DNA of 64,000 bases from an uncultured Chloroflexia bacterium (GCA_964592645.1 CAZQFV010000017.1:306-64305); one strand, 5' to 3'. Numbered from the stretch's first letter, positions 28,988-46,958 are shown. Numbers and translations: made by a program. Notes: generated by a model not told the origin, from the sequence alone.

Positions 28988-29117
28988 CTCAAGCCAGTTC
29001 GTTGCTGGCCGTATTTCGGTTTTCCGGGGTAGATGTCGCCGACAGCATCGCCGCCGGTCCCGGTTCGTTCGGGCCGGCGGTTGCGTTTTGTCCGCGAGCT
29101 TTGCGGGGCGAGGCAGC

Positions 29118-29359
29118 GATGGCCGAACAGCCCCTGACCTTTCGCCGGGCCGTGCAGTGCGACGGCTTTTCCGCCGAGCAGCTCAGGGAGCGGGGATTCG
29201 TAGCAGAAAGGCCTGGTCCAGACCGTCGTCCGCCGGCAAGCCCCGGGGGACCTGCCCTTTGCCGAGGCGCTGCATGCCGCACGTCTCGGCCTCTGGCGGG
29301 CCATCCTGGGCTACGACCCCGTGCGAGGCCTGGCGTTCTCCACCTACGCCTGGCCGATA
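29118..29359 (+). pseudogene. Sigma-70-family sigma factor fragment (region 2-like), frameshifted
   Basis: Frame 2 reads GDLPFAEALHAARLGLWRAILGYDPVRGLAFSTYAWPI, compared with the sigma region 2 pattern G..GL..A...FDP.RG..FSTYA...I. The N-terminal part lies in another frame and the gene is not intact. Confidence 0.4.
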
Positions 29360-29394
29360 CCCAGTACCCGCCGCCGCAGTGTCCCTATCTCGAC

Positions 29395-29685
29395 TCGCCG
29401 CGGGGGCTCTTGCTCAATATCGGGGAGCGCTTCGCCGATGGCTCGATCCGCCTGGTCCGCGACGAGGTCGTCGAAAGTCCCGCCTGGGAGCAACTCTATC
29501 ACCGCGGGCGCAATGCGGTGGAGGGGCGGAACGCGAAACGGGAGCAGTGGGACCAGAAACGCTTGCCGGTCTATGGCCCGGAACGGGGCAAGTCCTATGC
29601 CTTCTTGAGCGACGTGTGGGACAATCTGACAACGTTGGCCCGGCTCGTGCGAGAAGCCACGGCCGCGACCGGCTATCGATGTTGA
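29395..29685 (+). pseudogene. DDE transposase (IS4/IS5-like) C-terminal remnant
   Basis: ...WEQLYHRGRNAVEGRNAKREQWDQKRLPVYGPERGKSYAFLSDVWDNLTTLARLVRE resembles the Y-x2-R-x3-E ... K tail of DDE_Tnp_1-type transposases. No intact N-terminal catalytic region is present. Confidence 0.45.
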
Positions 29686-30025
29686 ACCGGGGTGCAAGGG
29701 AGTTCCGGCCCCGCGCTTCTGGGGGCCCGCTTCCGTCTGCCCACCGTACGGTTCATCACCCCGCAAACGGCCCTCCGACCGCTTGGAGCTCCACATCGGG
29801 CGTTGTTTTGCTCCTGAACCGCAGTGTTACCCATTCCGTGTCGGGTGGGGGTCCCCTTCTGCTTCGTTTTGGGGCGGATTGAGGAGAGCCTCTCGGCCAT
29901 CCACCTTTTCCGCCTTCAGCGCAATGGCCTCGCGCAGCAGCGCCGTGACATCGCAGGCGAACCGCACCGCGCCGCGGGTCTTGCCGGCTTCGATGACAGA
30001 GGGGACGCTAAACAAGTACGCTGGA

Positions 30026-31423: not shown

Positions 31424-31505
31424 CTTCCACCTCTTGCGAAGTAACCATCGAGCCTCGATCCTCGCGACCTTTAGCCGTCCAACGGTCGGGTTCATCGTTT
31501 ATCTC

Positions 31506-32984
31506 TTAGCTCAAACCGTTCTCCCGCAATAGTTTGGTGATGCTCTCAGAGCGTCTTCCAGTCGCGAAGTCTAGCAAGCCGCGTTCGGGTAGGGGTTTAC
31601 CGTCCCAATTTCTACCGGCCGGCACGCGATAATGGATATCGGCACCGCGTTGGATGAGCATTTGGGTCATACGTAACAAGCCGCCGCTAACAGAAAACAC
31701 CAATGGTGTCCAACCCCTCAGGCCGATATGAGTGCCAAACCCACCATGGACGGCATTCACATCGGCTCCTTCCGAAATGAGCCAGTTTGCCATATCGTAG
31801 TAATTATTCTGGACGGCCACCATCAGCGGGGTGTATCCAAAGCCGTCGGGTTCATTGGGATCGTTGCCGGCTTCCAGTAGAAATTCGGCCACTGGTAGAT
31901 GCCCTTTCCCAACCGCCAGATGGAAAGCGGTCCGTCCATCGCTCGCGCCCCCGGTAAGCGTGGTGAGCCTGGCGTGAATATCTGCGCCCTGGCTGACCAA
32001 GTAGCGCACCATTTCGAGATGCCCCGAACCGGCGGCAGTGATAAGCGGTGTCCCGCCAAAATGATCAGGGGCATCGATGTTTGCACCCCGCCGGATCAGT
32101 TCTTTCGCCAGGGGCAGACAGCCGTGGTTGGCCGCCCACCACAAGGCAGTTTGGCCGCGCCGAGGGTGGAATTCCCCCTTCAGGTCGCAGCGAGCAAAGT
32201 GGATATCTGCGCCTCGCTCGATCAGGAGTTTGGCGATATCGCAATGCCCCAACAGGGCTGACAGGACCAGGGCCGAACAACCATAGTACTCGCCGCCTTT
32301 CACAACTGCATTGATATCTGCTCCATCGTTCAATGCCTTTTCGACAGCGGATATGTTGTTCAGGGCGACTCCAAGCAGCAAGCACCGGCTAGGAGAGGCT
32401 GAGGGCGATATCTCGAAAGCAGGGCGGGCTTGTGGTTTTGGCGGCCGGAATGGCTCGGCTTGCAAGCCATGAGCGCTAAGGACTGCCCTAACATCTCTTG
32501 CCAGCAGGTCTGGGTTGTTTATATAGTCCATGAAGCGGTCATAACGCTCGTCCACAAACCCCAAGGCGATCGCTTGCGCACCCCGAGTTTGCTCGTCACT
32601 CGGATCGAATGGCACCCGTAGAAAATCGAGCATCAACTTGGGTAGGTCGGGGTGATATTGGTCTTGCAGGAGTTCAACGATCGCCCGTTTCTTCGGCCAA
32701 TCATGCTCGCGCCAATATTTCCTCATAAGGTATGGAACGACTTGTTTCGTGACCTGATCCCGGGCCGCCTCTATCTGCTGGGGGTTACCGGACCGAATGA
32801 TTCTCCCAAGCCGCCAGCGCCTTGTATTCAGCCAGCAATAGGCCGGTATGGCTACCAACGCAACGAAAATCAAACCGAGAAACAGCGTATTTGGGGAGAG
32901 GAGGACCGACAATTTCCGACTCGCTTTCTGCTGCCGGTAGGCTCGCATTACTCCTGGGGCAAAAGTGGCTCCAGTACGGCCCAC
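31506..32984 (-). CDS. Membrane-anchored ankyrin-repeat protein
   Basis: One N-terminal TM helix (LFLGLIFVALVAIPAYCWL), then at least 6 ANK units, for example GQTALWWAANHGCLPLAKELIRRGANIDAPD and GGTPLITAAGSGHLEMVRYLVSQGADIH. Confidence 0.85.
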   Translation of the reverse strand: MGRTGATFAPGVMRAYRQQKASRKLSVLLSPNTLFLGLIFVALVAIPAYCWLNTRRWRLGRIIRSGNPQQIEAARDQVTKQVVPYLMRKYWREHDWPKKRAIVELLQDQYHPDLPKLMLDFLRVPFDPSDEQTRGAQAIALGFVDERYDRFMDYINNPDLLARDVRAVLSAHGLQAEPFRPPKPQARPAFEISPSASPSRCLLLGVALNNISAVEKALNDGADINAVVKGGEYYGCSALVLSALLGHCDIAKLLIERGADIHFARCDLKGEFHPRRGQTALWWAANHGCLPLAKELIRRGANIDAPDHFGGTPLITAAGSGHLEMVRYLVSQGADIHARLTTLTGGASDGRTAFHLAVGKGHLPVAEFLLEAGNDPNEPDGFGYTPLMVAVQNNYYDMANWLISEGADVNAVHGGFGTHIGLRGWTPLVFSVSGGLLRMTQMLIQRGADIHYRVPAGRNWDGKPLPERGLLDFATGRRSESITKLLRENGLS

Positions 32985-33461
32985 CCTTCATCTGTTAGAT
33001 CCATTGCTCACCTCGATCATCGTGGTGAGCATAGTATTATACACCATCTTACGGATCTATGAGATGACTTCTAATACAATGCCGTATAGAAGATATTGCG
33101 GGAGCGTGACACCATTATACAAAAAAGGATTGCCCATGTCAATATGGAAGCGGTAGTGACCGGTGGACTTTCGGAAAAAGTCGCAGGGGATTCTCCGTCC
33201 CCTGCCTTCTCCGGTGCTCAGACAGCCGGTGCTCGGATCGGCGCCTGATCGCCCTCCTCTCGCAGGTAGGCGGTCAGCGTCGTGTCCGCGCTTGCCCAAA
33301 ATTGCCCCCGATGGCCGAAACCCTGGCCTGTCCCCTGCCGGTGCCGGCCGATGCAGCCCTGACCCCACGCCCTTCTCGTGGAGGCGCAGCCCGTGTAGCG
33401 CCCCATCTGGGGCGAGATTCCCCTTTGCCTTCCGTTTTGGGCAATCACCGGCGCCGGTGAG

Positions 33462-33491
33462 CTGGCAAGAGGGGCCGCCCTGTGATATAAT
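33462..33491 (+). promoter_or_regulatory. Candidate promoter of the defence operon, with an extended -10
   Basis: CTGGCA, 18 nt, TGaTATAAT (TATAAT at 33486-33491), about 160 nt upstream of the SNF2 start. Confidence 0.35.
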
Positions 33492-33648: not shown

Positions 33649-36600
33649 GTGACCGTCTTGGAGTGCCTTCAGCCCGGCGTCCGCCTCTATGACCGCCGCC
33701 TGGGGCGAGACCGCCAACTGCACCAGGTCGAACTCTATGGTCGCGTCGCCTTCCTGAGTTTCCTCGACCCGCAAACCGGAGCCGTTGACCGCCAGCCGTT
33801 CCCCCTGGACGAGATCGAGACTCGCTTCGAAGTGCCGGCGGCCGGCGGGGCGCTGTTCCACGGCGATCCCGAGGTCGTCCGGCTGATTGCCGAAGCCTAC
33901 CGCCTGCAACACGCCTACCTGTTCAACCCGGTTTTTGCCACCGAAACGTCCCTGATCGACCTGTTGCCCCACCAGTTGGCGGCGGTGTACGGCGTGCCGG
34001 CCGCCGACAACGGACCCGCCGGGCACCCCGGCCTCCTGGACCACCCCCGCCTGCGCTTCCTCCTGGCCGACGACGCCGGAGCCGGCAAGACGATCATGGC
34101 CGGCCTCTACATCCGCGAGATGCTCCTGCGCCACGCCGTGCAGCGCGTGCTCATCGTTTCCCCCGCCGGCCTGGTGGACAACTGGGAAAGGGAATTGCGC
34201 CGCTTCTTTGGGCTGCGCTTCCGCCCCATTGTGGGCAGCGACCTGGACGAGACCCACCGTCCCTTTGACGACCCCCGCTATAACCTGGCGTTGATCAGTG
34301 TGGACACCCTGGCCCGCGAACGGATGCGCGAGGCCTGCGGCGCGGCCCCGCCCTACGACCTGGTCATCTTCGACGAGGCCCATAAGCTCTCCGCCTGGCG
34401 CGAAAGCGACCTGAGCGAGCGCAAGACGCTCCGCTACCAGGCGGCCGAGGTCGTTGCCCGGCAGGGGCGCCACCTGTTGCTGATGACCGCCACGCCGCAC
34501 ATGGGCCACGACGAGCCCTACTACTTTCTCTGGCGGCTGCTCGATCCGGAGCTGTTCTCCACGGCGAGCGCCGTCCAGGAGTCGACACAGGCCCGGCGTC
34601 GCCACTATATGCTCCGGCGGATGAAGGAGGAGATGGTCCGCTTCAACGGAACACCTCTCTTTCCGCCGCGTCAGAGCGACACCGTCGAGTACCCCCTCGG
34701 CCCGGAGGAATGGAACCTCTACGAACAAGTCACCCACTATTGCCAAACCCACTACGGTCGAGCTCGGCAGCGCAACCGCGGCGCGGCCGGCCTGGCCATG
34801 AGCATCTTGCAGCGCCGCCTGGCCTCGTCCACCCTGGCCCTGTGCAAGTCGTTGGAGCGCCGACAGGAGAAACTGGCCGGCCAGCTGCGCGACCTGGAGG
34901 CCGGCCTGCTGCAACGCGAAGAATGGGAAGCCCGCCAGCGCGCGCTCCCCGACCACGATTTGCGCGACGAAAAGACGGCCGACGAAGAGGAACCGGTTGC
35001 AGGGCAGGAAGAAGGGGACCGGCAGGACGAAGAGGTTGCCGGGGCCACGGATGCTATCGGCGTGGAGGAACTGCGGGCGGAGCTGGCCGAGGTGGGGCAG
35101 CTCGCCCGCCTGGCCCGCGAGGTCCACGGTCTGGAGCAAGAGTCCAAGTTCGAGCGGCTGTGGGAGGCGCTGGAAGAATACCCCGACATCAAGGTGCTGG
35201 TCTTTACCGAGTACCGCGACACGCTCGAGTTCCTGCTGGGCCGCCTGGAGGGCAAGGGACTCACCGGCAAGGTGGCCTCCATCCACGGCGGGATGGACCG
35301 GCGCGCGCGAGGGGAACAGATCGCCCGCTTCCGCGACCCGGCCGGCGCCCGCATCATGGTGGCCACCGATGCGGCCGGCGAGGGCATCAACCTGCAGTTC
35401 TGTTGGCTGCTGATCAACTATGACATCCCCTGGAACCCGGCCCGCCTGGAGCAGCGCATGGGCCGCGTGCACCGCTACAAGCAGGAACACCGCGTCCTGC
35501 TCCTGAACGTCGTCGCGGCCCAGACGCGCGAGGGCACGGTGCTAAAGGTCCTGCTGGACAAGCTGGAGGCTATCCGCCGCGAGCTCGAGTCCGACAAGGT
35601 CTTTGATGTCATCGGCCAGCAGTTCAGCGGCCGGCCGCTGCAGGACCTGATCTTTGAGGCGGTTGTGGAAGGCAAGAAAGAGGAAGCCGTCCGCGAAATC
35701 GAGCGCACCCTATCGGTCGAGCAGGTCCGCCGCAACCTGGAACAGCAGCGCCTCAAGGTCGAGGTGTCCCCCGTGCGGGCCGTGCTGAAAGTCCTGCAGC
35801 AGCAGCGCGAGGTCGCCGAGGTGCGGCGGATGCTGCCGGCCTATGTCCGGCGCTTCTTCGAGTTGGCCGCGCCGCGGATTGGCTTGGGCATCCGGGGGGA
35901 CATCGCCGCACTCTTCTCCTTGGACCCCTGTCCGGACAGTGTCCGGCGGGCGCTCGATACGTACCCCGTCGAGATCCGCGACCGCCTGACCTTTGCGCGT
36001 GACCTGGCCGTGCCTGACATTGTTGGGGATCCCCGGGCAATCTATCTGTACCCGGGCGAGCCGGTGTTCGCGGCGGTCATGGACCTCTTCCTGGGGCACT
36101 ACGAGCCGGAAGCCGCGCGGGGGGCCGTGTACCTGGACGGGGACACCGCCGAACCCTACCTGTTCTACCTCGGCAAGGCGTCGGTCCTGCGCGTGCCGGA
36201 AGCGGCCGGGGAAGAGCCGGAAGTGGTCGCGGAGCACGTCGTGGGGGTCCGCCGCTATGCCGACGGCCGGCTGGAGCAGGCCCCCGCCCATCTGCTGATG
36301 ACCATGCTGGAGCCGGACCCGGACGTGACAGCGGAGGCGGCACTGCCCGCGGAGTTGGTTCAGTTGGCCGGCCAGCGTGGGCCGGTCGAAGCCTTCCTGG
36401 TCGAGCAGTTGGGGCTGCCGGCGCTGAAGGAGCAGCGCGCCGCCGAAGAAGCCCGCCTGCCGGAGCAGCGCCGCAACCTGCTGGTGGCCTACAACCTGCG
36501 CACGGCCGAGCTGCTGTGCCGGCGCGCCCTGCTCAAGGAGCGGGTCGAACGGGGCATCCCGGCGGCCGGCACCAAGCTGCGCGAGTGCGAAGAGGAACTG

Positions 36601-37113
36601 GCCGACCTGGACCGCCGCCGGCGCGAGAGGGAGGCCCATCTGCTCAACGCCCCGGAGCGGCTGCAGGTGGGGCCGGTCAGCCTCTACGTCCAGGCGCTGG
36701 TGCTGCCGGTGCCGCCGGAAGAGGCCGAGCGCCGCCGCGACGCGCAGGCCCAGGAGATCGCCCTGGCCCTGGTGCGCCGGCGCGAGGAGGCCGCCGGGAG
36801 CGTGGTGGAGGATGTCTCCGCGCCGCACCTCAAGGCCGGGTTCGACCTGAAGGTGCTGCGGGCCGACGGCTCGATCCGCTACGTCGAGGTCAAGGGCCGC
36901 CGCGGCCGGCCGGCCGTCGAGCTGACGGCCAACGAGTGGGCCACCGCCGCCAACCACCCCGATCGCTACTGGCTCTACGTGGTCTATGACTGCGAGACCA
37001 CGCCGACGCTCTACCAGGTGCCCGACCCCTTCGGCCGGCTGCTGGCCCGGCAGACCGGGGCGGTGCGGATCAACGCCGGCGAGGTGATGAATGCGGCGGC
37101 ACTCCTCTCTTGA
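33649..37113 (+). CDS. SNF2-family helicase with C-terminal DUF3883 (restriction-endonuclease-like) domain
   Basis: Helicase motifs LLADDAGAGKTIMAG (I), VIFDEAHKL (II), LLMTATPHMG (III) and YDIPWNPARLEQRMGRVHRYKQ (VI). The C-terminus GFDLKVLRADGSIRYVEVKGRRG...LTANEWATA...YWLYVVYD matches the DUF3883 pattern. The GTG 33649 start is provisional. The upstream part of the track ORF is Pro/Arg-rich junk. Confidence 0.85.
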   Translation: MTVLECLQPGVRLYDRRLGRDRQLHQVELYGRVAFLSFLDPQTGAVDRQPFPLDEIETRFEVPAAGGALFHGDPEVVRLIAEAYRLQHAYLFNPVFATETSLIDLLPHQLAAVYGVPAADNGPAGHPGLLDHPRLRFLLADDAGAGKTIMAGLYIREMLLRHAVQRVLIVSPAGLVDNWERELRRFFGLRFRPIVGSDLDETHRPFDDPRYNLALISVDTLARERMREACGAAPPYDLVIFDEAHKLSAWRESDLSERKTLRYQAAEVVARQGRHLLLMTATPHMGHDEPYYFLWRLLDPELFSTASAVQESTQARRRHYMLRRMKEEMVRFNGTPLFPPRQSDTVEYPLGPEEWNLYEQVTHYCQTHYGRARQRNRGAAGLAMSILQRRLASSTLALCKSLERRQEKLAGQLRDLEAGLLQREEWEARQRALPDHDLRDEKTADEEEPVAGQEEGDRQDEEVAGATDAIGVEELRAELAEVGQLARLAREVHGLEQESKFERLWEALEEYPDIKVLVFTEYRDTLEFLLGRLEGKGLTGKVASIHGGMDRRARGEQIARFRDPAGARIMVATDAAGEGINLQFCWLLINYDIPWNPARLEQRMGRVHRYKQEHRVLLLNVVAAQTREGTVLKVLLDKLEAIRRELESDKVFDVIGQQFSGRPLQDLIFEAVVEGKKEEAVREIERTLSVEQVRRNLEQQRLKVEVSPVRAVLKVLQQQREVAEVRRMLPAYVRRFFELAAPRIGLGIRGDIAALFSLDPCPDSVRRALDTYPVEIRDRLTFARDLAVPDIVGDPRAIYLYPGEPVFAAVMDLFLGHYEPEAARGAVYLDGDTAEPYLFYLGKASVLRVPEAAGEEPEVVAEHVVGVRRYADGRLEQAPAHLLMTMLEPDPDVTAEAALPAELVQLAGQRGPVEAFLVEQLGLPALKEQRAAEEARLPEQRRNLLVAYNLRTAELLCRRALLKERVERGIPAAGTKLRECEEELADLDRRRREREAHLLNAPERLQVGPVSLYVQALVLPVPPEEAERRRDAQAQEIALALVRRREEAAGSVVEDVSAPHLKAGFDLKVLRADGSIRYVEVKGRRGRPAVELTANEWATAANHPDRYWLYVVYDCETTPTLYQVPDPFGRLLARQTGAVRINAGEVMNAAALLS

Positions 37114-37186: not shown

Positions 37187-38449
37187 ATGATTGTGCAACT
37201 GGAGGCCCTCAATTACCTCTGTCTCCGCCATATCCGCCAGGGGCTGGCCCCGTTCCAGGTCCTGGTCGGCCCCAATGCTAGCGGCAAATCCACTTTTCTG
37301 GACATAGTGGGGTTCCTCGCCGATATCGTCCGTGAGAAAGAGGGGGTCGCCGCCGCCGTAGCAAACCGTGTGCCTGATGTCCGCGATCTGGTATGGATGC
37401 GCCGGAGCGACGCTTTCGAGCTGGTCATGGAAGCGACGGTACCGGATACGCTTCGACAGCGTAAGAACGGAGCCCACAGCCGCGTGCGCTACGAGGTGCG
37501 CGTTGGCCTCCATCCGGGGAGCGGTGAAATCAACCTGCTCGTGGAAACGCTCTGGCTGCGCCCGGAACCGCAGCCGGAGGGGAAACCCATCCAGCCTACT
37601 CTCTTCCCGGCTCCTCCATCCCCGCCGGCGACTATCGTTCGTGTTCCCCGCCGGCGGGCGCCGGCCGGCTGGCGGATGGTGCTACGCAAAGTACCCGAGT
37701 CCGGCAACGACTACTTCCGCTCCGAGACTTCCGATTGGAACAACCTCTTTCGCCTGGGACCGCGCCGTTCGGCCCTGGCAAACCTGCCGGAAGATGAGGA
37801 AAAGTTCCCATCAGCCATCTGGTTCCGCCGCCTACTCCTGGAGGGAGTACAGCGGTTGACGCTGAACAGCAAGATGCTGCGCCAACCCAGTCCACCCGCC
37901 AGCCCACGCCGCTTCCTGCCCGACGGGTCCAACCTCCCTTGGGTCGTCAAGAATATGGAGGACAAGGCTCCCGACCGACTGCAAGAATGGATCCGGCACG
38001 TGCGTACGGCGTTGCCCGATCTGCGCGGCATCCGAACCGTGGAGCGCGAAGAGGATCGCCATCGCTACATCGTCCTGGACTATGAGACCGATCTGCACGC
38101 CTGCTCCTGGCAGGTGTCCGACGGCACGCTGCGCATGCTGGCCCTGACCGTCCTGGCCTACATCCCTGACCTGGGGGGCGTTTACCTGGTCGAGGAGCCG
38201 GAAAACGGCATCCATCCGCGGGCGGTGGAGACGGTGTTCCAGTCCTTGTCCTCTGTCTACGGAGCCCAAGTCCTGTTGGCCACGCACTCGCCCGTCTTGT
38301 TGAGCCTGGCGGCGCCGGACCAAGTGTTGTGCTTCGCCCGCTATGAGGGCGCTACGGACATCGTGCGCGGTTCGGAGCACCCGCGCCTGAGCGAGTGGCG
38401 CGGCGAAACCGACCTGGGTACCCTCTTTGCCAGCGGAGTGTTGGGATGA
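37187..38449 (+). CDS. ABC/SMC-type AAA ATPase (AAA_15/21-like), copy 1
   Basis: Walker A VLVGPNASGKSTFLD, signature-like SDGTLRMLAL, Walker B VYLVEEPENGIHP, LLATHSP. Confidence 0.85.
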   Translation: MIVQLEALNYLCLRHIRQGLAPFQVLVGPNASGKSTFLDIVGFLADIVREKEGVAAAVANRVPDVRDLVWMRRSDAFELVMEATVPDTLRQRKNGAHSRVRYEVRVGLHPGSGEINLLVETLWLRPEPQPEGKPIQPTLFPAPPSPPATIVRVPRRRAPAGWRMVLRKVPESGNDYFRSETSDWNNLFRLGPRRSALANLPEDEEKFPSAIWFRRLLLEGVQRLTLNSKMLRQPSPPASPRRFLPDGSNLPWVVKNMEDKAPDRLQEWIRHVRTALPDLRGIRTVEREEDRHRYIVLDYETDLHACSWQVSDGTLRMLALTVLAYIPDLGGVYLVEEPENGIHPRAVETVFQSLSSVYGAQVLLATHSPVLLSLAAPDQVLCFARYEGATDIVRGSEHPRLSEWRGETDLGTLFASGVLG

Positions 38450-39060
38450 AAGACCTGATCGTTCTCGCGGCCGATAAGAACATCGAGTACGCCGTCCGCG
38501 GTCTGCTGGAACGCTCCGCCGACCTGGGGATTCACCCGCCCGAGTCCGAAGTGATCGTTCACCCCCGACGGGACCCCGGCTGTTTCAATGAGGCGCCCGA
38601 CTTCCTGCGGCCATGGACGCGCCAGTTTCGGCACACGCTTGTCTTGTTCGATTACGCCGGCTGCGGATGTGAGCACAGGCTGGAGGCGGACACCGTTGCT
38701 GATGACCTGCTAGGGCGACTGGCCCGCAACGGCTGGGATAACCGGGGGGAGGTAGTTGTCCTGAATCCGGAACTCGAAGCCTGGGTATGGAGTAGCCGGC
38801 CCTATGTGGACGTCTGTCTGGGCTGGGCCGGCCGGCAACCCCCGTTACGGGAATGGCTGGCCCAAAGCGGATTCTGGCCACCCAATGCGCCCAAGCCTCC
38901 CGATCCCAAGGGCGCCATGGAGGCCGCCCTGCGCCAGGTGCGGAAGCCGCGCTCCTCGGCCATCTACCTGAACCTGGCCCGGCAGGCGACCTTGGGCGGC
39001 CACACCGAACGCGGCTTTGTGCGCTTCGCACAGGCTTTGCAAAGGTGGTTCCCCCGATGA
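38446..39060 (+). CDS. Small partner protein, a divergent DUF4276/Toprim-like paralog (hypothetical)
   Basis: ATGA start/stop overlap with the ATPase. Collinear with 42980..43579: LIVLAADKNIEYAVRGLLER vs VIVPIVEGQGEVEAVPILLRR; VLFDYAGCG vs LLLDAEEDC; ELEAWVW vs KYECWFV. Confidence 0.6.
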   Translation: MKDLIVLAADKNIEYAVRGLLERSADLGIHPPESEVIVHPRRDPGCFNEAPDFLRPWTRQFRHTLVLFDYAGCGCEHRLEADTVADDLLGRLARNGWDNRGEVVVLNPELEAWVWSSRPYVDVCLGWAGRQPPLREWLAQSGFWPPNAPKPPDPKGAMEAALRQVRKPRSSAIYLNLARQATLGGHTERGFVRFAQALQRWFPR

Positions 39061-41789
39061 CCTATCGTCTCATCGAGCAAGCCTTTCCACTCAAAAAGGT
39101 CTCGGCCGACTCCAAGCATGAGAAGAACGTCCGCCACGGCCACATCTCCACGCTGCACATCTGGCCGGCCCGCCGGCCGTTGGCCGCCTGCCGCGCCGCG
39201 CTCATCGCCGCGCTGCTGCCCGACCCCGGCGACGAGGCCGGCCGGGCCGAGCTGTGCCGCAAGATCGGGCGCATCACCCGCTGGGGCACGGAGGACGGGC
39301 CGGAACTGGAGTTCTTCCGCCGCGAGATCCGCCGGGCCTACGGCGGGCGCGCCCCGCGCGTGCTGGACCCCTTTGCCGGCGGCGGGGCCATCCCCCTGGA
39401 GGCCATGCGCCTGGGCTGCGAGGTGGTGGCCAACGACTATAACCCGGTGGCGTGGTTCATCCTGAAGTGTACGCTCGAGTTCCCCCAAAGGCTGGCGGGG
39501 AAGAAGTGGCCGTTGCCCGAATCACAGGGGCCGGGGACAAGGGACAACGGACAAGGGGGGCCGACCCAGATGAGGTTTGGGGATGCGGGCGCCGCCGAGG
39601 GCGACCTGGCCGCCCACGTGCGCTACTGGGGCCACTGGGTGCTGGAGCACGCCCGGAAGGAGCTGGCCCCCTACTATCCCACGGTGGACGGCCGGCCCAC
39701 CGTGGCCTACCTCTGGGCGCGCACCGTCCCCTGCCCCGACCCGGCCTGCGGGGCCGAGGTGCCGCTGCTGAAGACGCTGTGGTTGTGCAAGAAGGAGGGC
39801 AAGCGCCGGGCGCTGCGCCTGGTGCCCGACCCGGCACACCATCGCGTCGGTTTCGAGGTCTGGACCCCCGGCCCCAAGGACGAGGTGCCCGCAGGCACGA
39901 TGGCCGGGGCCAAGTGCCGCTGCCCGGTCTGCGGCACGGCGATTACCACCGACTACATCAAGCAGCGCGGGCACGAGGGCCAACTGGGGGCGCGGATGAC
40001 GGCCGTGGTGGTGGAGACCGGGCGAGGCAAGGAGTACCGCCTGCCGACGGCAGAGGAAGAGCAGGCCGCCCGGCGCGCGGCCGAGGCGCTCCCCTCCGCC
40101 GCGGCGCAGATTCCCTACGGCCTGCCGGCGGAGCCGCTGCCCGAGAGTGGGACATCCGGCGCCGGACGCGCATTCACGATCCCCCTCTACGGCTTCCGCA
40201 CCTGGGCCGACCTCTTCACCCCGCGGCAGTTGCTGGCGCTGGGCACCTTTGTCCGTTGGACCCGCCTGGCGCGGGAGGAGATGCGCCGGCTGGGGTATCC
40301 CGAGGAAAAGGTGGAAGCAGTGGAGGCATACCTGGCCAGTATCGGAGACAAGTGTGCGGACTACGGCTCATCTCTCGCCAGGTGGGAAAATGGTGGTGAG
40401 TTCATTGCTCCTACATTTCAACGTTTTGCTCTAGCCATGCTGTGGGATTTCGCCGAAACAAACCCGTTGCGTTCCGTATCTGGCTCGTTTGAGAATCACC
40501 TTGACTGGACAGTGCGCTACATAGAACATGCCCTTGCGGCTACGGAGAGAGGTGGAAACCTTACCATCGCGCAGCAATCGGCGACCCAATCTCTTGATTG
40601 CCTTGCGGATGCGGTCGTCACCGATCCACCCTACTACGACGCCATCCCCTATGCCGACCTTTCGGACTTTTTCTACGTCTGGCTGCGCCGCGCCGTCGGC
40701 GACCGGTATCCGGAGAACTTTGCCACACCCACCACGTGTAAGGCCGATGAGTTGGTGCAACAGCACAAGGACGGCCGGGCAGGGCGCAAGGGCAAAGAGG
40801 AATACGAGGCGGGCATGGCCGAGGCATTCCGCCGCGTCTGGGAATCGTTGGCGCCCGACGGGCGCATGGTCGTCGTCTTTGCCCACAAGGACCCCGAGGC
40901 CTGGGAGACGCTGGTCACGGCCATGGTCGGGGCCGGGTTCACCGTGACCGCTTCCTGGCCTATTGACACAGAACGAGGAAGCAGGGTGCGAGCACATGGC
41001 AGTGCCGCTCTGGCCTCCTCCATCTGGATGGTCTGCCGCAAGCGGCCCGAGGGGGCCGGGGTGGGCCGCTACGCCGCGGTGCGCAAGGCCATGCAGGAGC
41101 GCATCACCGAGCGGCTGCGCTACTTCTGGGACGCCGGCATCGGCGGGGCCGACTTTGTCTGGGCGGCGGTGGGGCCGGCGCTGGAGTCGTACTCGGCCTA
41201 CGACGAGGTGCGCCGGTTGGACGGCACGCCCTTTACCGTGGGCGAGTTCCTGCGCGAGGTGCGCCGGCTGGTGGCCGATTTCGCCCTGGGGCGCATCCTG
41301 AGAGGGCACTCCACCGAGGGCCTGGACGAGTGGACGCGCTACTACCTGATCCACCGCAGCACCTTTGGGCTGGAAGCGGCCCCGGTGGGCGAGTGCATCC
41401 TGCTTTCGCAGGGCTACGGCCTGGACCTGAACGAGCTGCGCGGGCCGCGGGGCTTTCTCGTCAGAGCGGTCGGCAGCGACCTGCGGCTGGCCGCCTGGGA
41501 AGAACGTGTCCGGGATGATTTGGGCGAACCCCATCCTAGTGGCGGCCTGCCGCTGGTGGATGTCCTGCACCGGCTGATGCGGCTGTGGGAGGGCGGGCAG
41601 TTGGACGCCCTCAACACCTACGCGGCCGGCAAGGGCCTGCCGCAGAACGATCTCTTCTGGGCCGTGGCCCAGGCCGTGCTGGAGATGGCCGGGGTTAGGA
41701 GCAAGGAGCGGACGCTGCTGGAGGCGGTGGTGGCATGGGGGCGGGGTGGCCGAGTCCATGAGGTTGTCCAACTGGAGTTGCCCGGTTAA
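39057..41789 (+). CDS. DUF1156-type DNA methyltransferase (N6-A/N4-C class) with an internal zinc ribbon
   Basis: The N-terminus LIEQAFPLKKVSADSKHEKNVRHGHISTLHIWPARRP is the DUF1156 hallmark. VLDPFAGGGAIPLEA is the SAM motif I. VVTDPPYYD is motif IV (DPPY at 40623-40634). CPDPACG...CRCPVCG is the zinc ribbon. ATGA overlap with the upstream gene. Confidence 0.85.
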   Translation: MTYRLIEQAFPLKKVSADSKHEKNVRHGHISTLHIWPARRPLAACRAALIAALLPDPGDEAGRAELCRKIGRITRWGTEDGPELEFFRREIRRAYGGRAPRVLDPFAGGGAIPLEAMRLGCEVVANDYNPVAWFILKCTLEFPQRLAGKKWPLPESQGPGTRDNGQGGPTQMRFGDAGAAEGDLAAHVRYWGHWVLEHARKELAPYYPTVDGRPTVAYLWARTVPCPDPACGAEVPLLKTLWLCKKEGKRRALRLVPDPAHHRVGFEVWTPGPKDEVPAGTMAGAKCRCPVCGTAITTDYIKQRGHEGQLGARMTAVVVETGRGKEYRLPTAEEEQAARRAAEALPSAAAQIPYGLPAEPLPESGTSGAGRAFTIPLYGFRTWADLFTPRQLLALGTFVRWTRLAREEMRRLGYPEEKVEAVEAYLASIGDKCADYGSSLARWENGGEFIAPTFQRFALAMLWDFAETNPLRSVSGSFENHLDWTVRYIEHALAATERGGNLTIAQQSATQSLDCLADAVVTDPPYYDAIPYADLSDFFYVWLRRAVGDRYPENFATPTTCKADELVQQHKDGRAGRKGKEEYEAGMAEAFRRVWESLAPDGRMVVVFAHKDPEAWETLVTAMVGAGFTVTASWPIDTERGSRVRAHGSAALASSIWMVCRKRPEGAGVGRYAAVRKAMQERITERLRYFWDAGIGGADFVWAAVGPALESYSAYDEVRRLDGTPFTVGEFLREVRRLVADFALGRILRGHSTEGLDEWTRYYLIHRSTFGLEAAPVGECILLSQGYGLDLNELRGPRGFLVRAVGSDLRLAAWEERVRDDLGEPHPSGGLPLVDVLHRLMRLWEGGQLDALNTYAAGKGLPQNDLFWAVAQAVLEMAGVRSKERTLLEAVVAWGRGGRVHEVVQLELPG

Positions 41790-41798
41790 GGAGGACCT

Positions 41799-42983
41799 AT
41801 GATTACCGAGGTGCAGATCAAGAACTACCGCAGTCTGGCCCAAGTAGTTGTTAACCTCGAACGGCTTACGATCCTCGTCGGCCCCAACGGGGCAGGCAAG
41901 AGCAACTTTGTGGACGCACTGCGCTTTGTTGCCGACGCGCTCAGCACGACGCTGGAACTTGCCCTCAAGCAACGCGGCGGTATCAACGCCGTCCGGCGGC
42001 GCTCCAAGGGACATCCCACCCACTTTGGCCTGCGTGTCCGCATGGACTGGGGGCGAGGGGACGGAGCCGTGTACTCGTTCAAGATCTCGGCATTGCCGCG
42101 GGGCGATTTCGCCGTGAGCCAAGAGATGGGACATATCTGGGGGCCCAAGGCAGTTCCGGCCCACCAGTTTTCGGTCAGAGATGGCGTGCTGACGACAAAC
42201 ATAAAGGGTTTGCGGCCCAAGATCGAAAGAGATCGCCTGGCCTTGACCGTTCTGTCCGCTACCGAGGAGGTGCGCCCTCTCTATGACTCGCTTACTCAGA
42301 TGCGTTTCTACTCGCTGGTGCCTGACCGCATCCGCGAGCTACAGGAACCCGATCCTGGGCAGGCGCTGAAGCGCGACGGAAGCAATGCCGCAGCCGTCCT
42401 GCGGGAGATCAGGAAGCACTCGCCGCAGGACTATGAGCGTGTCTGTCGTCTGCTGAGCAAGGTCGTTCCAGGCACGACCGGCGCGGAATACCTGTCTGCG
42501 GGACCAAAAGAAACGTTGCAGTTTCGACAAGACGTGGGCGACGCCAACCCGTGGTCGTTTGAGGCCCTCAATATGTCCGATGGGACGTTGCGCGTTCTTG
42601 GCGTCCTGCTGGCTGTCTATCAGACGCCTACTCCCCCCTTCATTGCCATTGAGGAACCCGAATCCACCATCCATCCGGCGGCCGCAGAGGTTTTGGTGAA
42701 CATATTTTCTGAGGCTTGCACCCGCTCGCAGATATTGATTACAACCCATAGCCCGGACATCCTCGACAGCAGAGAACTCCAGGACAATCAGATACGGGCC
42801 GTGGAGTACCAAAATGGAAGGACAACGATCAGCCCCCTAGGGCCGGTGTCACGGGAAGCCATCCGAAAGAATCTCTACACGCCCGGCGAGCTGCTCCGCA
42901 TGGGCGAACTGGAGCCGGACCGTGAGGTCGGCGCGCGGTTGGGTCAGCAGCTATCCTTGTTTGGCTGGAAGGTGAAACCATGA
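41799..42983 (+). CDS. ABC/SMC-type AAA ATPase (AAA_15/21-like), copy 2
   Basis: Walker A ILVGPNGAGKSNFVD, SDGTLRVLGV, Walker B FIAIEEPESTIHP, LITTHSP. Clear paralog of 37187..38449. AAGGAGGA lies upstream. Confidence 0.85.
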   Translation: MITEVQIKNYRSLAQVVVNLERLTILVGPNGAGKSNFVDALRFVADALSTTLELALKQRGGINAVRRRSKGHPTHFGLRVRMDWGRGDGAVYSFKISALPRGDFAVSQEMGHIWGPKAVPAHQFSVRDGVLTTNIKGLRPKIERDRLALTVLSATEEVRPLYDSLTQMRFYSLVPDRIRELQEPDPGQALKRDGSNAAAVLREIRKHSPQDYERVCRLLSKVVPGTTGAEYLSAGPKETLQFRQDVGDANPWSFEALNMSDGTLRVLGVLLAVYQTPTPPFIAIEEPESTIHPAAAEVLVNIFSEACTRSQILITTHSPDILDSRELQDNQIRAVEYQNGRTTISPLGPVSREAIRKNLYTPGELLRMGELEPDREVGARLGQQLSLFGWKVKP

Positions 42984-43579
42984 ATCCGGTCATTGTCCCA
43001 ATAGTGGAGGGCCAGGGCGAGGTTGAGGCCGTCCCCATCCTGCTTCGCCGAATCCTCCACTCCTGGGAAGCCTTCGCCTGCGACATCAGGCGGCCAATAC
43101 GTGTCAAGCGCCAGCGAGTGGTCAAACCTGGCGAATTGGAGCGCGTACTTGAACTGGCTGCCATGCAGCCTGGATGCCGGGCTGTTCTGCTCTTGCTCGA
43201 CGCGGAGGAAGACTGCCCGGCCATTCTAGGACCGGCCCTCCTTGAGCGGGCGCAAAAGGCAAGACCTGACATTCCGTGCCGGGTTGTGCTGGCCAAAGCA
43301 AAGTATGAGTGCTGGTTTGTCGGCAGTATCGAATCGCTGCGAGGGCAGTGTGGGATTCGAGCCGACGCAGCAGCACCGGACTCGCCCGAGGAAATGAAGG
43401 GGGCCAAGGCCTGGCTGACCCAACACATGGAGCATAGGCGAACCTACCAGGAAGTAGATGATCAGCCCCCGTTGACCGCGAGTTTCGACATAGAACTGGC
43501 TCAGCGGTCTTGCCCTTCTTTTGACAAGCTGCTACGCGATCTTCGGGACCTGCAGACCCTGCTGTCTGAGGAGCAATGA
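42980..43579 (+). CDS. DUF4276 family (Toprim-like) protein
   Basis: MNPVIVPIVEGQGEVEAVPILLRR, LLLLDAEEDCP, AKAKYECWF. This is the acidic E...DxE/D pattern I associate with DUF4276. ATGA overlap with the ATPase stop. Confidence 0.7.
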   Translation: MNPVIVPIVEGQGEVEAVPILLRRILHSWEAFACDIRRPIRVKRQRVVKPGELERVLELAAMQPGCRAVLLLLDAEEDCPAILGPALLERAQKARPDIPCRVVLAKAKYECWFVGSIESLRGQCGIRADAAAPDSPEEMKGAKAWLTQHMEHRRTYQEVDDQPPLTASFDIELAQRSCPSFDKLLRDLRDLQTLLSEEQ

Positions 43580-43580
43580 G

Positions 43581-46500
43581 ATGTCCGTATTCATGTGGCA
43601 CCACCTCTGTACCCTCCGCGACGACGTTCGCGCCGGCCGGCTCACCCTGGACGAGTTCGCCGCCGACCTGAACGGCGTGCGCACCGGCGAATCGCCGCCC
43701 GTCTACCGCGAAGCGACGATGTTCTTCTCGCGCACCTACCCGACCTACCGCATGAAACAACTGGTGCGCGATGTCCTCCTGCGGCTGGCCGGCCGGGGAG
43801 GCAAACCCGTGCAGCAGCTCCAGGTGGCCTACGGCGGCGGCAAGACGCACACCCTGATCACCCTGCTGCACCTGGCCGAGCAGGGGCCGGGTCTGGCCGA
43901 CCACCCGACGGTGCAAGAGTTCTTCACCTTTGCCGGCCTGCCCCATCCACCCCGCGCCCGCGTGGCCCTGCTTCCCCTGGACAAGTTCGACGTCAAGGAA
44001 GGGCTGGAAGTCTGCGGCCCCGCCGGGCAACCCCGCCGCGTGCGCACCCTCTGGGGCGCCCTGGCCCATCAACTGGCCGGGGACGCCGGCTACGCCCGGC
44101 TGAAAAGCCACGACGAGGAGTTCACCGTCCCGGCCGAGCCGCTGCTGGTGGACCTGCTGCGCGCGCCGTTGCACGAGGGCCTGGGCGCGCTGGTGCTGGT
44201 GGACGAGGCCGTCTGGTACTACCGCAACCTGGTGCTGGCCAACCCCCGCGCCTTTGGCGCGCTCAAGGATTTCTACCAGGTGCTCACCCAGGCTGTGGCC
44301 AAGGTCGAACATGCCGCATTGGTGGCCGCGCTCGTCGCTTCCAAGGTTGAGGCCAACGACCATACGGGCATCCAGTGCCTCGGCGCGCTGGAGGACATCT
44401 TTGGCCGCATCGCCGAACCGGTGGAGCCGGTGACGCGCGAGGACGTGGCCGAGGTGCTGCGGCGCCGCCTGTTCGAGAGTGTCGCGGGCGAGGCCGAACG
44501 CCGGCCGGTGGTCGATGCGGTGATGGCCGCGATGCAGCGACTGCCGCTGCGCGACGCCCAGCGCGACCAGGCGGCCTACCACCGGATGATGGAAAGCTAC
44601 CCCTTTCACCCCGACCTGGTCGAGGTGCTCTACCAGAAGTGGACCCAGTATGACGGCTTTCAGCGCACCCGCGGCGCCCTGCGCCTGCTCGCCTATGCCC
44701 TGCGCGAGACGGCCGGCCACGACCCCTCGCCGCTGATCGGCCCCTGGGCGCTGCTCAACCCGGAGGGTCCCTCTCTCTCTCCGGCCCTGAACGAGCTGGT
44801 GCCCATCTGCCAGGAGCGCGAAAAATGGGGGCCCATCCTCACGGGCGAGCTGGCCAAGGCCCGCGAGGTTCAGGCCGGCCTGCCCACGCTGCCGCACCGG
44901 GAGATGGAGCAGGCGGTCGTCGCCACCTTCCTGCACTCGCACCCGCCGGGGCAGCGCGCGTCGCCTTCGGAGCTGCTGGCGCTGCTGGCCCACCCCGAGG
45001 GGGACCCGGCCGCGCTCGAGGAGGGGCTGCGCAAGTGGCGCGGTATCTCGTGGTTCCTGGTCGAGGACCCGCAGGTGTGGCGGCTGAGCACGCACCCCAA
45101 TCTCAACCACATCCAGGCCCGGGCCCTGGAGTCATTGAACGAACCGGACGTCGAGGCCGAGCTGCGCAGGCGCATCGCCGCCGTCCCCGCGCTGCGCGAG
45201 GCCGACGCGGGCGTCGCGGTGCATATCCTGCCCAAATCCCCGGCCGATGTCCCGGACAACCTGGAACTGCGCTACCTGGTGCTGGGACCGGAGTGCGCCG
45301 TCGAGCCGGGCAAGGCGTTGCCGGCCGAGGTCGAAGCCTACTTCGACCAGGTCACCGGCCCGCAGAACCCGCGTATCTACCGCAACAACGTCATTGCCCT
45401 GGTGCCGGAAGCGTCGCGGATGGCCGGCCTGCGCAACCGGGTGCGCGAGTACCTGGCCTGGGACCGCGTGGAGAACGTGGCCGAGTACCGCCAGGCGCTG
45501 ACCGAGCAGCAGCGGCGCGAGTTGGTTCAGCGCAAGGGCGCCGTGGCCGGCAGCTTGCCCGAGTCGGCGGTAGCGGCATACAACCTGCTGGTGGCCGTCG
45601 ACGAGAGCGGCAAGGTGGGCCTGTCGACGCTCCGCCACGCCGGCGCGACGGCCTTTGACCGCATCAAGGCAACGCTCGCGGAAGAGGAGCGTATCATCGT
45701 CAACACCGTGGACCCCGACCTGCTCCTGCCGGGGAGTTACCTGGACCTGTGGCGGGAGGGGGAAGAGAGCAAGCGCGTCCCCGACCTGATGGCCGCCTTT
45801 GGGCAGTTTCACCGCCTGCCGCGCCTGCTGCGCCCCGACGTGCTCTACGAATCGCTGCGGCGCGGCGTGCGCGAGGGCACGCTGGTCCTGCGGCTGGTCC
45901 GCGGCGATGGCTCCATGCGCACCTACTGGCGCACCCTCCCCGACGAGGACACCCTGCGCCGGCCCGACCTGGAGCTACAGTCATCCGGCCGGGCCACCTT
46001 GCACAATCTGGAGCCTGAGCTGTTGTCGCCGCAGAAGGTCGAGGCCCTCTGGCCGCTTCCGACGGGGCCCGCGACTTTGGAAGACTGGCGCGCTTGCTTT
46101 GACGGTGTGCGTCTCCCCCGCCTACGGGATGCCGGCGTCCTGGACGAAGCCCTGCGCGCCGCGGTTTGCCGGGGTTTGCTCATGGCCCGCCTGGGCCGGG
46201 CCTCCTACTTCCGCGAGGCCCTGCCGGAGGGGCAACTCGCGGGTACGCTGGAGTTGCTGGCCCCGCCGCGGCCCATTCGCGGCGCCGACCTGACCCCCCA
46301 GGCCATGCCGGAGGTTTGGGTGGGAGGACAGACCACCGCCCAGCGATTGATGGAAGCCATATCCGCGGAGCGCGGCTATCCCATACCCTGGACTCTCCTC
46401 CAGGACGGGATTGAGGATGCTTTGCGGCTGCACCTTCTGGCGCGTTCCGCGGATAGCGGCCCCTGGCCCTGTTCGCCGGGCGCGGCCGGCGAGGTCGTGT

Positions 46501-46958
46501 TCCGGGTAGTCGAGGAGATCCACCTGACCGTGGACACGATCATTGCCGCGCTGCCCTACGCCGAGAGTGAAACCCCAACGCTGCGCGCGCTGAAAGAGGC
46601 AGTCGAGATGCAGATTCTGGGCAAACCGGTTCCCGAGGACCAGTTCATCGGCGTCGTCCGGGAAGCCCTGAACCGGCGCGCGCTGCAGGCGGTTGACCTG
46701 CCCGTGCAGCAACTGACGCTCTCGACACGGGTCCGCCGCCCGCCGGTGGCCCTGGTCGCCGACGCCACGCTGAGCGCGGCCGAGGTGCAGCGGCTGGCCG
46801 AGATCGCCGCGCAGTTGCTCTCCATCGCGCCCGGGCTGGAGTTCACCTTCCGGGTTGTGCTGACGGCGGAAGGGGAGCCGCCTGACGAGCAGGTATCCGA
46901 AGGGCTCAACGACGCCCTGGAGAAGGTCAAGGCCGGCTGGCGGTTCTCCGGTTCATGA
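43581..46958 (+). CDS. DUF499-type large P-loop ATPase
   Basis: The N-terminus LRDDVRAGRLTLDEFAADLNGV...FFSRTYPTYRMKQLVRDVLLRLAG....QLQVAYGGGKTHTLITLLHL (Walker A) and LVLVDE (Walker B) fit the DUF499 layout. The start lies 1 nt after the upstream stop. Confidence 0.8.
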   Translation: MSVFMWHHLCTLRDDVRAGRLTLDEFAADLNGVRTGESPPVYREATMFFSRTYPTYRMKQLVRDVLLRLAGRGGKPVQQLQVAYGGGKTHTLITLLHLAEQGPGLADHPTVQEFFTFAGLPHPPRARVALLPLDKFDVKEGLEVCGPAGQPRRVRTLWGALAHQLAGDAGYARLKSHDEEFTVPAEPLLVDLLRAPLHEGLGALVLVDEAVWYYRNLVLANPRAFGALKDFYQVLTQAVAKVEHAALVAALVASKVEANDHTGIQCLGALEDIFGRIAEPVEPVTREDVAEVLRRRLFESVAGEAERRPVVDAVMAAMQRLPLRDAQRDQAAYHRMMESYPFHPDLVEVLYQKWTQYDGFQRTRGALRLLAYALRETAGHDPSPLIGPWALLNPEGPSLSPALNELVPICQEREKWGPILTGELAKAREVQAGLPTLPHREMEQAVVATFLHSHPPGQRASPSELLALLAHPEGDPAALEEGLRKWRGISWFLVEDPQVWRLSTHPNLNHIQARALESLNEPDVEAELRRRIAAVPALREADAGVAVHILPKSPADVPDNLELRYLVLGPECAVEPGKALPAEVEAYFDQVTGPQNPRIYRNNVIALVPEASRMAGLRNRVREYLAWDRVENVAEYRQALTEQQRRELVQRKGAVAGSLPESAVAAYNLLVAVDESGKVGLSTLRHAGATAFDRIKATLAEEERIIVNTVDPDLLLPGSYLDLWREGEESKRVPDLMAAFGQFHRLPRLLRPDVLYESLRRGVREGTLVLRLVRGDGSMRTYWRTLPDEDTLRRPDLELQSSGRATLHNLEPELLSPQKVEALWPLPTGPATLEDWRACFDGVRLPRLRDAGVLDEALRAAVCRGLLMARLGRASYFREALPEGQLAGTLELLAPPRPIRGADLTPQAMPEVWVGGQTTAQRLMEAISAERGYPIPWTLLQDGIEDALRLHLLARSADSGPWPCSPGAAGEVVFRVVEEIHLTVDTIIAALPYAESETPTLRALKEAVEMQILGKPVPEDQFIGVVREALNRRALQAVDLPVQQLTLSTRVRRPPVALVADATLSAAEVQRLAEIAAQLLSIAPGLEFTFRVVLTAEGEPPDEQVSEGLNDALEKVKAGWRFSGS

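Follow-up and report, generated by a model that had tools for sequence, protein, structure and literature searches.

Background

Hma (Helicase-Methylase-ATPase) is a phage-defence system whose core is encoded by three genes, hmaA, hmaB and hmaC (Payne et al. 2021). Embedded genes are found between the hma genes in 62.7% of 1,485 Hma systems, and 37% are without them; the commonest embedded family couples an ABC ATPase to a small nuclease, HEC-01 (Hma-embedded candidate 01) being the version with a TOPRIM partner (Payne et al., bioRxiv 10.1101/2024.01.29.577857). The locus studied here is a predicted Hma operon in a 64,000-nucleotide stretch of DNA from an uncultured Chloroflexia bacterium (GCA_964592645.1, CAZQFV010000017.1:306-64305), in which each gap between two hma genes holds an ABC ATPase gene followed by a gene for a small protein, hereafter pair 1 (ATPase 1 and partner 1) and pair 2 (ATPase 2 and partner 2). 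The whole stretch is called the window; its overall G+C content is 68% and all positions are counted along it. Loci designated by L-numbers lie on other contigs that were compared with it.

Similar gene pairs are known from other defence systems. In MADS of Pseudomonas aeruginosa, Mad3 is an AbiEii/AAA_21-type ATPase and Mad4 was assigned to DUF4276 by HHpred with 99.78% probability (Maestri et al.). DUF4276 has in turn been assigned to the Toprim superfamily (PMC12065111), and MADS3-4 has been classed among the ABC ATPase + TOPRIM systems (PMC11464382). In PARIS, AriB is held by the ATPase AriA (AAA_15/21), whose sensing of an anti-restriction protein from a phage is ATP-dependent; once released, AriB forms dimers and cleaves tRNA (PMC11464382). 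For OLD, the Toprim nuclease is presumed to be regulated by its ATPase (PMC6755086). A preliminary description of the present locus, made from its sequence, had proposed that the two pairs are clear paralogues forming one active and one degenerate module built into a modification-based system. The analysis reported here favors another interpretation: it seems likely that each gap of an Hma operon holds an independently acquired ABC ATPase + Toprim cassette of the HEC-01/Mad3-Mad4 kind, whose small proteins are predicted nucleases.

An Hma operon with a cassette in each gap

The Hma core detected by PADLOC is complete: HmaA, HmaB and HmaC are present once each, in this order, all on the + strand and with two genes in each gap, so by its gene content the surrounding system is a predicted Hma phage-defence operon. 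The first gene, hmaA (33649-37113, +), encodes an SNF2/DEAD helicase whose C-terminal domain, NOV_C (DUF3883), is predicted to be restriction-endonuclease-like (PADLOC HmaA at 4.7e-181; Pfam Helicase_C, SNF2-rel_dom, ResIII and NOV_C). Its open frame reaches back to 33163, and the start at 33649 follows the 1154-amino-acid gene call on the identical contig L001. It is followed by ATPase 1 (37187-38449, +; open reading frame 37181/37187-38449), an ABC-type ATPase (AAA_21/AAA_15) of 420 amino acids (Pfam AAA_21 at 1.7e-34), and by partner 1 (38446-39060, +), a Toprim-like protein of 204 amino acids from a divergent DUF4276/Mad4 branch. The middle gene, hmaB (39057-41789, +; with the start that is called on identical contigs), encodes a DUF1156 N6-adenine DNA methyltransferase of 910 amino acids (PADLOC HmaB at 3.6e-146; Pfam DUF1156 at 4.2e-20). 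The second gap holds ATPase 2 (41799-42983, +), an ABC-type ATPase of 394 amino acids (Pfam AAA_21 at 1.1e-30, AAA_15 at 5.7e-22 and SMC_N at 1.1e-15), and partner 2 (42980-43579, +), a DUF4276 Toprim protein (HEC-01B) of 199 amino acids. The last gene, hmaC (43581-46958, +; start read from the sequence), encodes a DUF499 ATPase (PADLOC HmaC at 4.3e-110; Pfam DUF499 at 2.8e-25). The preliminary description had correctly placed the two pairs on either side of a methyltransferase, and all the peptide strings that it quoted are present in the four reading frames concerned.

The junctions from hmaA to hmaC measure 73, -4, -4, 9, -4 and 1 nucleotides. Partner 1 starts within the end of ATPase 1 and ends within the start of hmaB, overlapping the stop and the start respectively by 4 nucleotides; the start of partner 2 likewise overlaps the stop of ATPase 2 by 4 nucleotides, and the ATG of hmaC lies 1 nucleotide past the stop of partner 2. 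In each cassette the partner gene is translationally coupled to its ATPase gene. Since the junctions are this tight and no convincing + strand terminator was found inside the seven-gene region, the seven genes read as one operon.

Pair 2 is readily classified. ATPase 2 matches the PADLOC model HEC-01A PDLC04178 at 1.7e-134 and carries the motifs GPNGAGKS (Walker A), SDGTLR, AIEEPE (Walker B) and THSP. Partner 2 matches HEC-01B PDLC04196 at 7.8e-65 and, in agreement with the preliminary description, belongs to Pfam DUF4276 (PF14103), with 52.9 bits against a gathering threshold of 30.2 (E = 7.1e-14) over profile positions 1-191 of 192. By these matches, pair 2 is a textbook HEC-01 cassette. Its relatives in the outside loci are 34-76% (ATPase 2) and 43-70% (partner 2) identical.

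Pair 1 is more divergent. ATPase 1 matches HEC-01A PDLC04182 at 6.5e-44 over its full length and mad3 at 5.5e-28, and displays Walker A GPNASGKS, a signature-like SDGTLR, Walker B LVEEPE and an H-loop THSP. Both ATPases have the intact Walker A (GxxxxGK[ST]), acidic Walker B, signature-like and H-loop motifs of a predicted catalytically competent ABC ATPase. Partner 1 matches mad4 at 4.4e-6 and, weakly, HEC-01B at 0.0083; it has no match in Pfam, DUF4276 being absent at E <= 1 and its gathering threshold thus not reached. The relatives of partner 1 place it better: all 23 that were sampled match mad4, 12 match HEC-01B PDLC04210 (best 2.1e-7), nine match PDLC04209, and six match Pfam DUF4276 at E <= 1 (best 4.3e-6). 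Because of these mad4, HEC-01B and DUF4276 matches, together with the literature that links Mad4, DUF4276 and Toprim, partner 1 is best described as a sister or divergent branch of the DUF4276 superfamily to which partner 2 belongs, not as a member of the Pfam family. The branch is large, with 313 clusters in a protein database and 339 confirmed stretches in a one-genome-per-species collection, and relatives of ATPase 1 (43-81% identical) and partner 1 (40-65% identical) are found in Chloroflexota, Planctomycetota, Latescibacterota, Desulfobacterota, Verrucomicrobiota and others.

Distribution of the two cassette types

The distribution was surveyed in 80 outside loci for each pair, with a neighbourhood of 10 kilobases (kb). 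A partner-1-type gene directly follows an ATPase-1-type gene in all 79 loci that have upstream DNA, and the corresponding order of the pair-2 types is seen in 70 of 71 loci. The types of ATPase and partner are never mixed in the 160 loci, so that each partner is cognate to its own ATPase, and the two cassette types never occur together within 10 kb. Hma genes lie near 15 of the 80 pair-1 loci and 4 of the 80 pair-2 loci, counts that are lower bounds because many contigs are short; within 10 kb of 64 pair-1 loci and of the majority of the pair-2 loci, there is no Hma gene. Outside Hma, the cassettes are flanked by unrelated housekeeping genes (sulfatase, dnaA, gyrB, kinases, transporters). When they do lie in Hma operons, the slot varies: the pair-1 type occupies the gap between hmaA and hmaB in L013, L033 and L079 and the gap between hmaB and hmaC in L034, L039, L041, L069, L071 and L083, and the pair-2 type precedes hmaC in L085 and L086 and hmaB in L139 and L142. 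The cassettes are self-contained and autonomous, and either type fits either Hma slot.

The preliminary description had called for a survey of duplicated pairs. The two types present in the window were not found together in the outside loci, as indicated above, but several embedded cassettes in one Hma operon are not unusual (L083, L070, L041 and L071). In the slot between hmaB and hmaC of L083 (6243-10612) and L070 (1830-5673), a PDC-M07A-type ATPase and its small partner stand in tandem with a pair-1-type cassette. L041 has HEC-06 and a nucleotidyltransferase/HEPN-like pair, the motifs of which were recognized by eye, and L071 has PDC-S02.

Some further observations were made on these loci. 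The small partner of the PDC-M07A-type ATPase in L083 looks PIN-like by eye and has no PADLOC match. Pair-1-type cassettes lie a few kb from a gene for a DnaA-like ATPase in three loci and from gyrB in three others (L023 and L029 are among these loci), which suggests that this neighbourhood is a recurrent insertion site in those genomes. Among the partner-2-type loci, only L116 (1-2267) lacks a detectable ATPase-2-type gene although its upstream DNA exceeds 2 kb; its DUF4276 gene may be an orphan or may be paired with an ATPase that has diverged strongly.

Fold and candidate metal site of the partners

The AlphaFold (AF2) models of the two partners are of high confidence (93.6 for partner 1 and 94.3 for partner 2 in pLDDT, the predicted local distance difference test). 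Both models run beta-alpha-beta-alpha-beta-alpha-beta and end in a helical region, the order of the elements being identical throughout, so the models assign a common four-stranded Toprim-like fold to the two proteins. The modelling of the small proteins had been proposed in the preliminary description, and the folds turn out to be related. In a Foldseek search, the top match of partner 1 in the PDB is 6nk8_B, the C-terminal region of the Burkholderia OLD protein (probability 0.99 and TM-score 0.53, the whole chain being covered); next comes the Xanthomonas OLD protein (6njv). At the sequence level, neither family profile gave a meaningful match to a PDB chain.

A full-length profile alignment pairs the motifs of partner 1 and partner 2 as D10/E10, E14/E14, D69/D74, E109/K108, E111/E110 and W113/W112. 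In both models the first acidic pair lies just after beta1, an aspartate lies at the end of beta3 and an ExE motif lies just after beta4. These positions are strongly conserved. In 120 sequences of the partner-1 family, D10 is kept in 116, E14 in 108, D43 in 119, D69 in 120, E109 in 119, E111 in 118, K150 in 120 and K155 in 119. The near-invariant residues of the partner-2 family (also 120 sequences) are E10, E14, D74, E108 and E110. Here E10, invariant and located just after beta1, corresponds to the Toprim glutamate of the beta1-alpha1 loop, and at the place of the DxD motif after beta3, D74 is invariant and position 76 is an aspartate in 99 of the 120 sequences, the protein of the window reading D-A-E. 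The preliminary description had correctly seen that the partners are collinear but diverged: they have a common fold and collinear motifs in the models and in the profile alignment, and a pairwise BLASTP detects no similarity between them. It had also read the string AADKNIE of partner 1 as the loss of the acidic N-terminal motif that partner 2 displays as VEGQGE, which does not hold, as both acidic positions are kept (D10 for E10, with E14 retained).

The acidic pattern of the partners (D/ExxxE and the ExE after beta4) resembles the two-metal site of BpOLD, an equivalence drawn by motif position. That site comprises the E400/E404 pair, with its spacing of four, D455 from a DxD motif, T506 and E508 where the helical domain begins, and K562 (PMC6755086). 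Both partners keep the full set of candidate metal-binding carboxylates (the lysine at position 108 of the window's partner 2 is considered below), and both are therefore predicted to be nucleases. Partner 1 in particular is not degenerate, since its candidate metal ligands are near-invariant in 120 relatives from many phyla and the best PDB match of its model is the Toprim region of OLD. If either partner of this locus is functionally altered, partner 2, which has the one unusual change in the candidate active site, would be the better candidate. Its codon 108 (43301-43303), within the ExE motif after beta4, is AAG, one transition away from GAG, and encodes lysine; position 108 is a glutamate in 119 of the 120 partner-2 sequences, and the single lysine belongs to the protein of the window itself. 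An identical partner 2 protein sequence was found on 20 contigs, so this E108K substitution is real and not a read error.

Relationship between the two pairs

The similarity of the two ATPases exceeds chance, with 29% identity over 151 residues in the C-terminal part (BLASTP, E = 4e-12) and 41% over 46 residues in the N-terminal part (E = 6e-9), and both match AAA_21/AAA_15. To call them clear paralogues is nevertheless an overstatement, as the central ~180 residues are unalignable. At the DNA level, the pairs match over only 39 nucleotides (72%), which cover the codons of Walker B, and neither the scar of a duplication nor repeats flanking the cassettes were found when the operon was searched for them. 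At third codon positions, the hma genes have a G+C content (GC3) of 0.84-0.88, against 0.77 for pair 1 and 0.66-0.71 for pair 2. L009, the nearest Hma relative (HmaB 73% and HmaC 74% identical), has pair 1, and its hmaB runs straight into hmaC.

Judged by their sequences and distribution, the pairs are two old cognate lineages, anciently diverged and only distantly homologous, not the products of a local duplication. Their presence in one operon most likely reflects two separate insertions, because the slots vary, Hma is mostly absent from the neighbourhood of these cassettes, L009 lacks pair 2 and GC3 differs. The proposal that the pairs are built into the modification system is not supported either: most of their relatives lie outside Hma, more than a third of Hma systems have no embedded genes, as indicated in the Background, and pair 2 is missing from the nearest Hma relative. 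By the preliminary description's own measure, the dispensability of the pairs in related loci, its division into an active and a scaffold module fails.

L009 has some peculiarities of its own. A truncated copy of the first ~36 hmaB codons (844-1017; 94% identical to residues 4-36 of the window's HmaB) lies directly upstream of its cassette, the ATPase-1-type gene occupies 993-2264 and a full hmaB follows the cassette. The partial copy looks like a scar left where a cassette was inserted or exchanged at the 5' end of hmaB. Just upstream are two small open reading frames which, by eye, resemble an AbrB/SpoVT-type antitoxin and a PIN-type toxin; they have no PADLOC match.

Possible function and alternative explanations

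By analogy with PARIS and OLD, a mechanism can be proposed in which each ATPase would be both the sensor and the holder of its own nuclease. An infection cue may be sensed through the divergent central insert of each ATPase, which would then release or activate the cognate nuclease; differing inserts could mean differing triggers. In that case, the cassettes would act as second or back-up layers of defence, co-transcribed with Hma and working beside its methylation-based discrimination. The identities of the genes, the autonomy of the cassettes, the cognate pairing, the conservation of the residues and the fold are shown by the present analysis, whereas the nuclease activity, the sensor-effector logic and any functional link to Hma are inferred.

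Several observations weigh against the interpretation of the locus as an Hma operon with two independently acquired cassettes encoding nucleases. HEC-01 protected against none of the phages tested (Payne et al., bioRxiv 10.1101/2024.01.29.577857), and a defence role of a HEC-01-type cassette is demonstrated in MADS only. Partner 1 has an aspartate (D10) in place of the canonical Toprim glutamate, and the second aspartate of its DxD motif is not kept: D69 is invariant, but position 71 is variable (E in 55 sequences, Q in 19 and D in 14). Partner 2 of the window carries E108K in a candidate metal-site motif, and OLD is absent from its top 50 Foldseek matches in the PDB, which are generic three-layer alpha/beta folds. 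Moreover, the direct comparison of the two partners by hhalign is weak (local E = 0.025; greedy full-length E = 0.05; unaligned in global mode), and cross-searches with hidden Markov models between the two families (a set of 240 sequences) gave only E >= 0.004. The sequence evidence that directly joins the two partners being this weak, their homology rests on intermediate models and on the fold.

Several scenarios may be opposed to this interpretation. The one put forward in the preliminary description, in which a single pair was duplicated in the locus, copy 2 staying active and copy 1 decaying into a regulatory or scaffold module of the modification system, would account for the common architecture, the collinear motifs, the position of the pairs on both sides of the methylase and the failure of partner 1 to reach the Pfam DUF4276 threshold. 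Yet ATPase 1 and partner 1 have far closer relatives in other phyla than in pair 2, the partner-1 family is strongly constrained at its acidic and lysine positions, the cassette is mostly alone and outside Hma, GC3 differs between the pairs and no DNA repeat is left; a local duplication is therefore scarcely credible. Another possibility is that this Hma uses one pair, or both, as integral restriction effectors and not as independent passengers, in parallel with Mad3 and Mad4 of MADS, which restriction requires but methylation does not. This scenario is kept alive by the requirement for both genes in that system, where deletion of mad3 or mad4 lowers defence and plasmids taken from a mad3-deletion strain stay methylated (Maestri et al.). 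It would also be congruent with the mad4 matches of all the sampled partner-1 relatives, the translational coupling of the embedded genes to hmaB and hmaC, and the fact that no other single neighbour accompanies the pair-1 cassette as often as Hma does (15/80). Nevertheless, Hma genes are missing from the 10-kb surroundings of 64 of the 80 pair-1 loci and of most pair-2 loci, the slot varies, L009 lacks pair 2, 37% of Hma systems do without embedded genes and HmaA has a NOV_C/DUF3883 domain of its own, all of which make integral effectors improbable.

The two remaining scenarios concern the state and the role of the cassettes. If E108K disabled or attenuated the second metal site, pair 2 would be an impaired module and pair 1 the working cassette. 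The lysine is unique to the window among the 120 sequences, recurs in the identical protein of 20 contigs and falls in the ExE motif after beta4, which by its position is comparable to T506/E508 at metal B of BpOLD. This comparison, however, depends on motif position and not on superposition; in BpOLD, replacement of single metal ligands made no discernible difference in vitro (PMC6755086), and the rest of partner 2 and the whole of ATPase 2 are intact open frames. Impairment of pair 2 thus seems rather unlikely. The cassettes could also be toxin-antitoxin-like addiction modules that stabilize a genomic island and sense no phage. The Pfam label of AAA_21 ("putative AbiEii toxin"), the lack of defence by HEC-01 in the published assay and the occurrence of single cassettes among housekeeping genes may be cited in its favor. 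But the related PARIS, OLD, Gabija and Mad3/4 are all defence systems, and the cassette recurs in Hma operons together with HEC-06, PDC-S02 and PDC-M07, so that an addiction role appears highly unlikely.

The preferred interpretation, two independently acquired cassettes in an Hma operon, may be extended in a more speculative direction. The partner-1 lineage is characterized by the motif [AP]-D-K-N-x-E, in which aspartate replaces the Toprim glutamate, and by the lack of a DxD; its metal-site chemistry or its substrate could therefore differ from those of canonical DUF4276 proteins. The lineage may then be a distinct nuclease family and more than a divergent DUF4276, and the locus a set of two differently tuned back-up sensors directed against different anti-Hma counter-defences, with pair 2 possibly attenuated by E108K. 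This extension is offered tentatively, as a possibility of rather low probability.

Genomic surroundings

In the region 28915-33160, upstream of the Hma operon, a tRNA-Asn gene (28915-28988, +) is followed by a stretch of lower G+C content (0.56-0.60, against ~0.70). Two genes on the - strand occupy this stretch: one (31506-32984) encodes an ankyrin-repeat protein of 492 amino acids that matches the PADLOC candidate PDC-M72A (6e-33), the other (30026-31495) a protein of 489 amino acids with no family match. The low-G+C stretch adjoining the tRNA gene and the Hma operon together look like a genomic island. No integrase domain was found in the open reading frames scanned, and a search for an att-type repeat of the 3' end of the tRNA-Asn gene that would delimit the island found none. 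A perfect sigma-70 consensus (TTGACA, 17 nucleotides, TATAAT) at 33142-33114 on the - strand is aimed at the ankyrin gene. On the + strand, a sequence matching the consensus at 10 of 12 positions and with an extended -10 TG lies at 33462-33491, ~160 nucleotides upstream of the called hmaA start. The two are possible divergent promoters of the island. About 3 kb downstream of the operon, on the - strand (49840-51930), a gene encodes a protein of 696 amino acids in which an N-terminal CpXC zinc-ribbon-like domain is combined with a C-terminal CHAT (caspase-like protease) domain; it has no PADLOC match.

Comparison with known systems

The preliminary description had likened the pairs, each an ABC ATPase with a small Toprim-like protein, to OLD, Gabija and PARIS, and this architecture is supported. 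Class 2 OLD (BpOLD, PDB 6NK8) and GajA of Gabija also combine an ABC ATPase with a nuclease region, made up of a Toprim and a helical part, of two-metal chemistry, and the acidic spacing of the partners (E/D-x3-E, D after beta3, xE after beta4) is similar to that of BpOLD. In OLD and GajA, however, the ATPase and the Toprim are fused, whereas here they are encoded by separate genes overlapping by 4 nucleotides, and the Old and GajA models match the ends of the ATPases only; identity with these single-polypeptide proteins was rejected on account of the split genes. PARIS likewise has a split ABC ATPase sensor (AriA, AAA_15/21) and a separate Toprim nuclease, is often found in or near restriction-type systems, and offers the mechanism that has been studied best. 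AriB, however, is a DUF4435 protein of ~300 amino acids, unlike the ~200-residue partners of this locus, neither of which matches DUF4435 at E <= 0.1, and the AriA matches of the ATPases come from generic AAA_21/AAA_15-like models. Without DUF4435, membership in PARIS was rejected.

The locus also resembles MADS of Pseudomonas aeruginosa SMC4386 (Maestri et al.). There too, an AAA_21-type ATPase gene is followed by one for a DUF4276-like small protein in a methylation-based defence operon; both ATPases of the window match mad3, and partner 1 matches mad4 as do its 23 sampled relatives. One difference lies in the role of the pair, which is needed for restriction in MADS and looks like an autonomous passenger within Hma here. 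The mandatory genes of MADS include Mad6 (a kinase), Mad7 (DptG-like) and Mad8 (a helicase) (Maestri et al.). A scan of the seven operon proteins matched only mad2, mad3 and mad4, with no match to the mad6, mad7 and mad8 models, and membership in MADS was rejected on that ground.

The arrangement is that of HEC-01 (PADLOC-DB; Payne et al., bioRxiv 10.1101/2024.01.29.577857), likewise a same-strand cassette of an ABC ATPase and a small TOPRIM (DUF4276) protein between hma genes. The locus departs from it in having two cassettes of separate sub-lineages, one per slot, and in its partner 1, which reaches HEC-01B only at 0.0083 and has an aspartate in place of the Toprim glutamate. As Hma operons with embedded ABC-ATPase/Toprim cassettes are already published and can be searched for with PADLOC, the locus carries little weight as a discovery. 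Its interest is that it reveals the Mad3/Mad4-like branch as a widespread, autonomous and strongly conserved cassette whose small protein is missed by Pfam, that it provides concrete candidate residues for mutation in both branches, and that a single Hma operon with two related sensor-nuclease cassettes would be a natural test of whether such cassettes act independently or in concert with their host system. Compared with Hma as described (Payne et al. 2021), the core genes show no difference, and it is in the embedded genes that the variation lies. Three features set this locus apart: two lineages of one cassette type fill both Hma slots, one partner belongs to a widespread aspartate-bearing branch invisible to Pfam, and the other partner carries a unique E108K.

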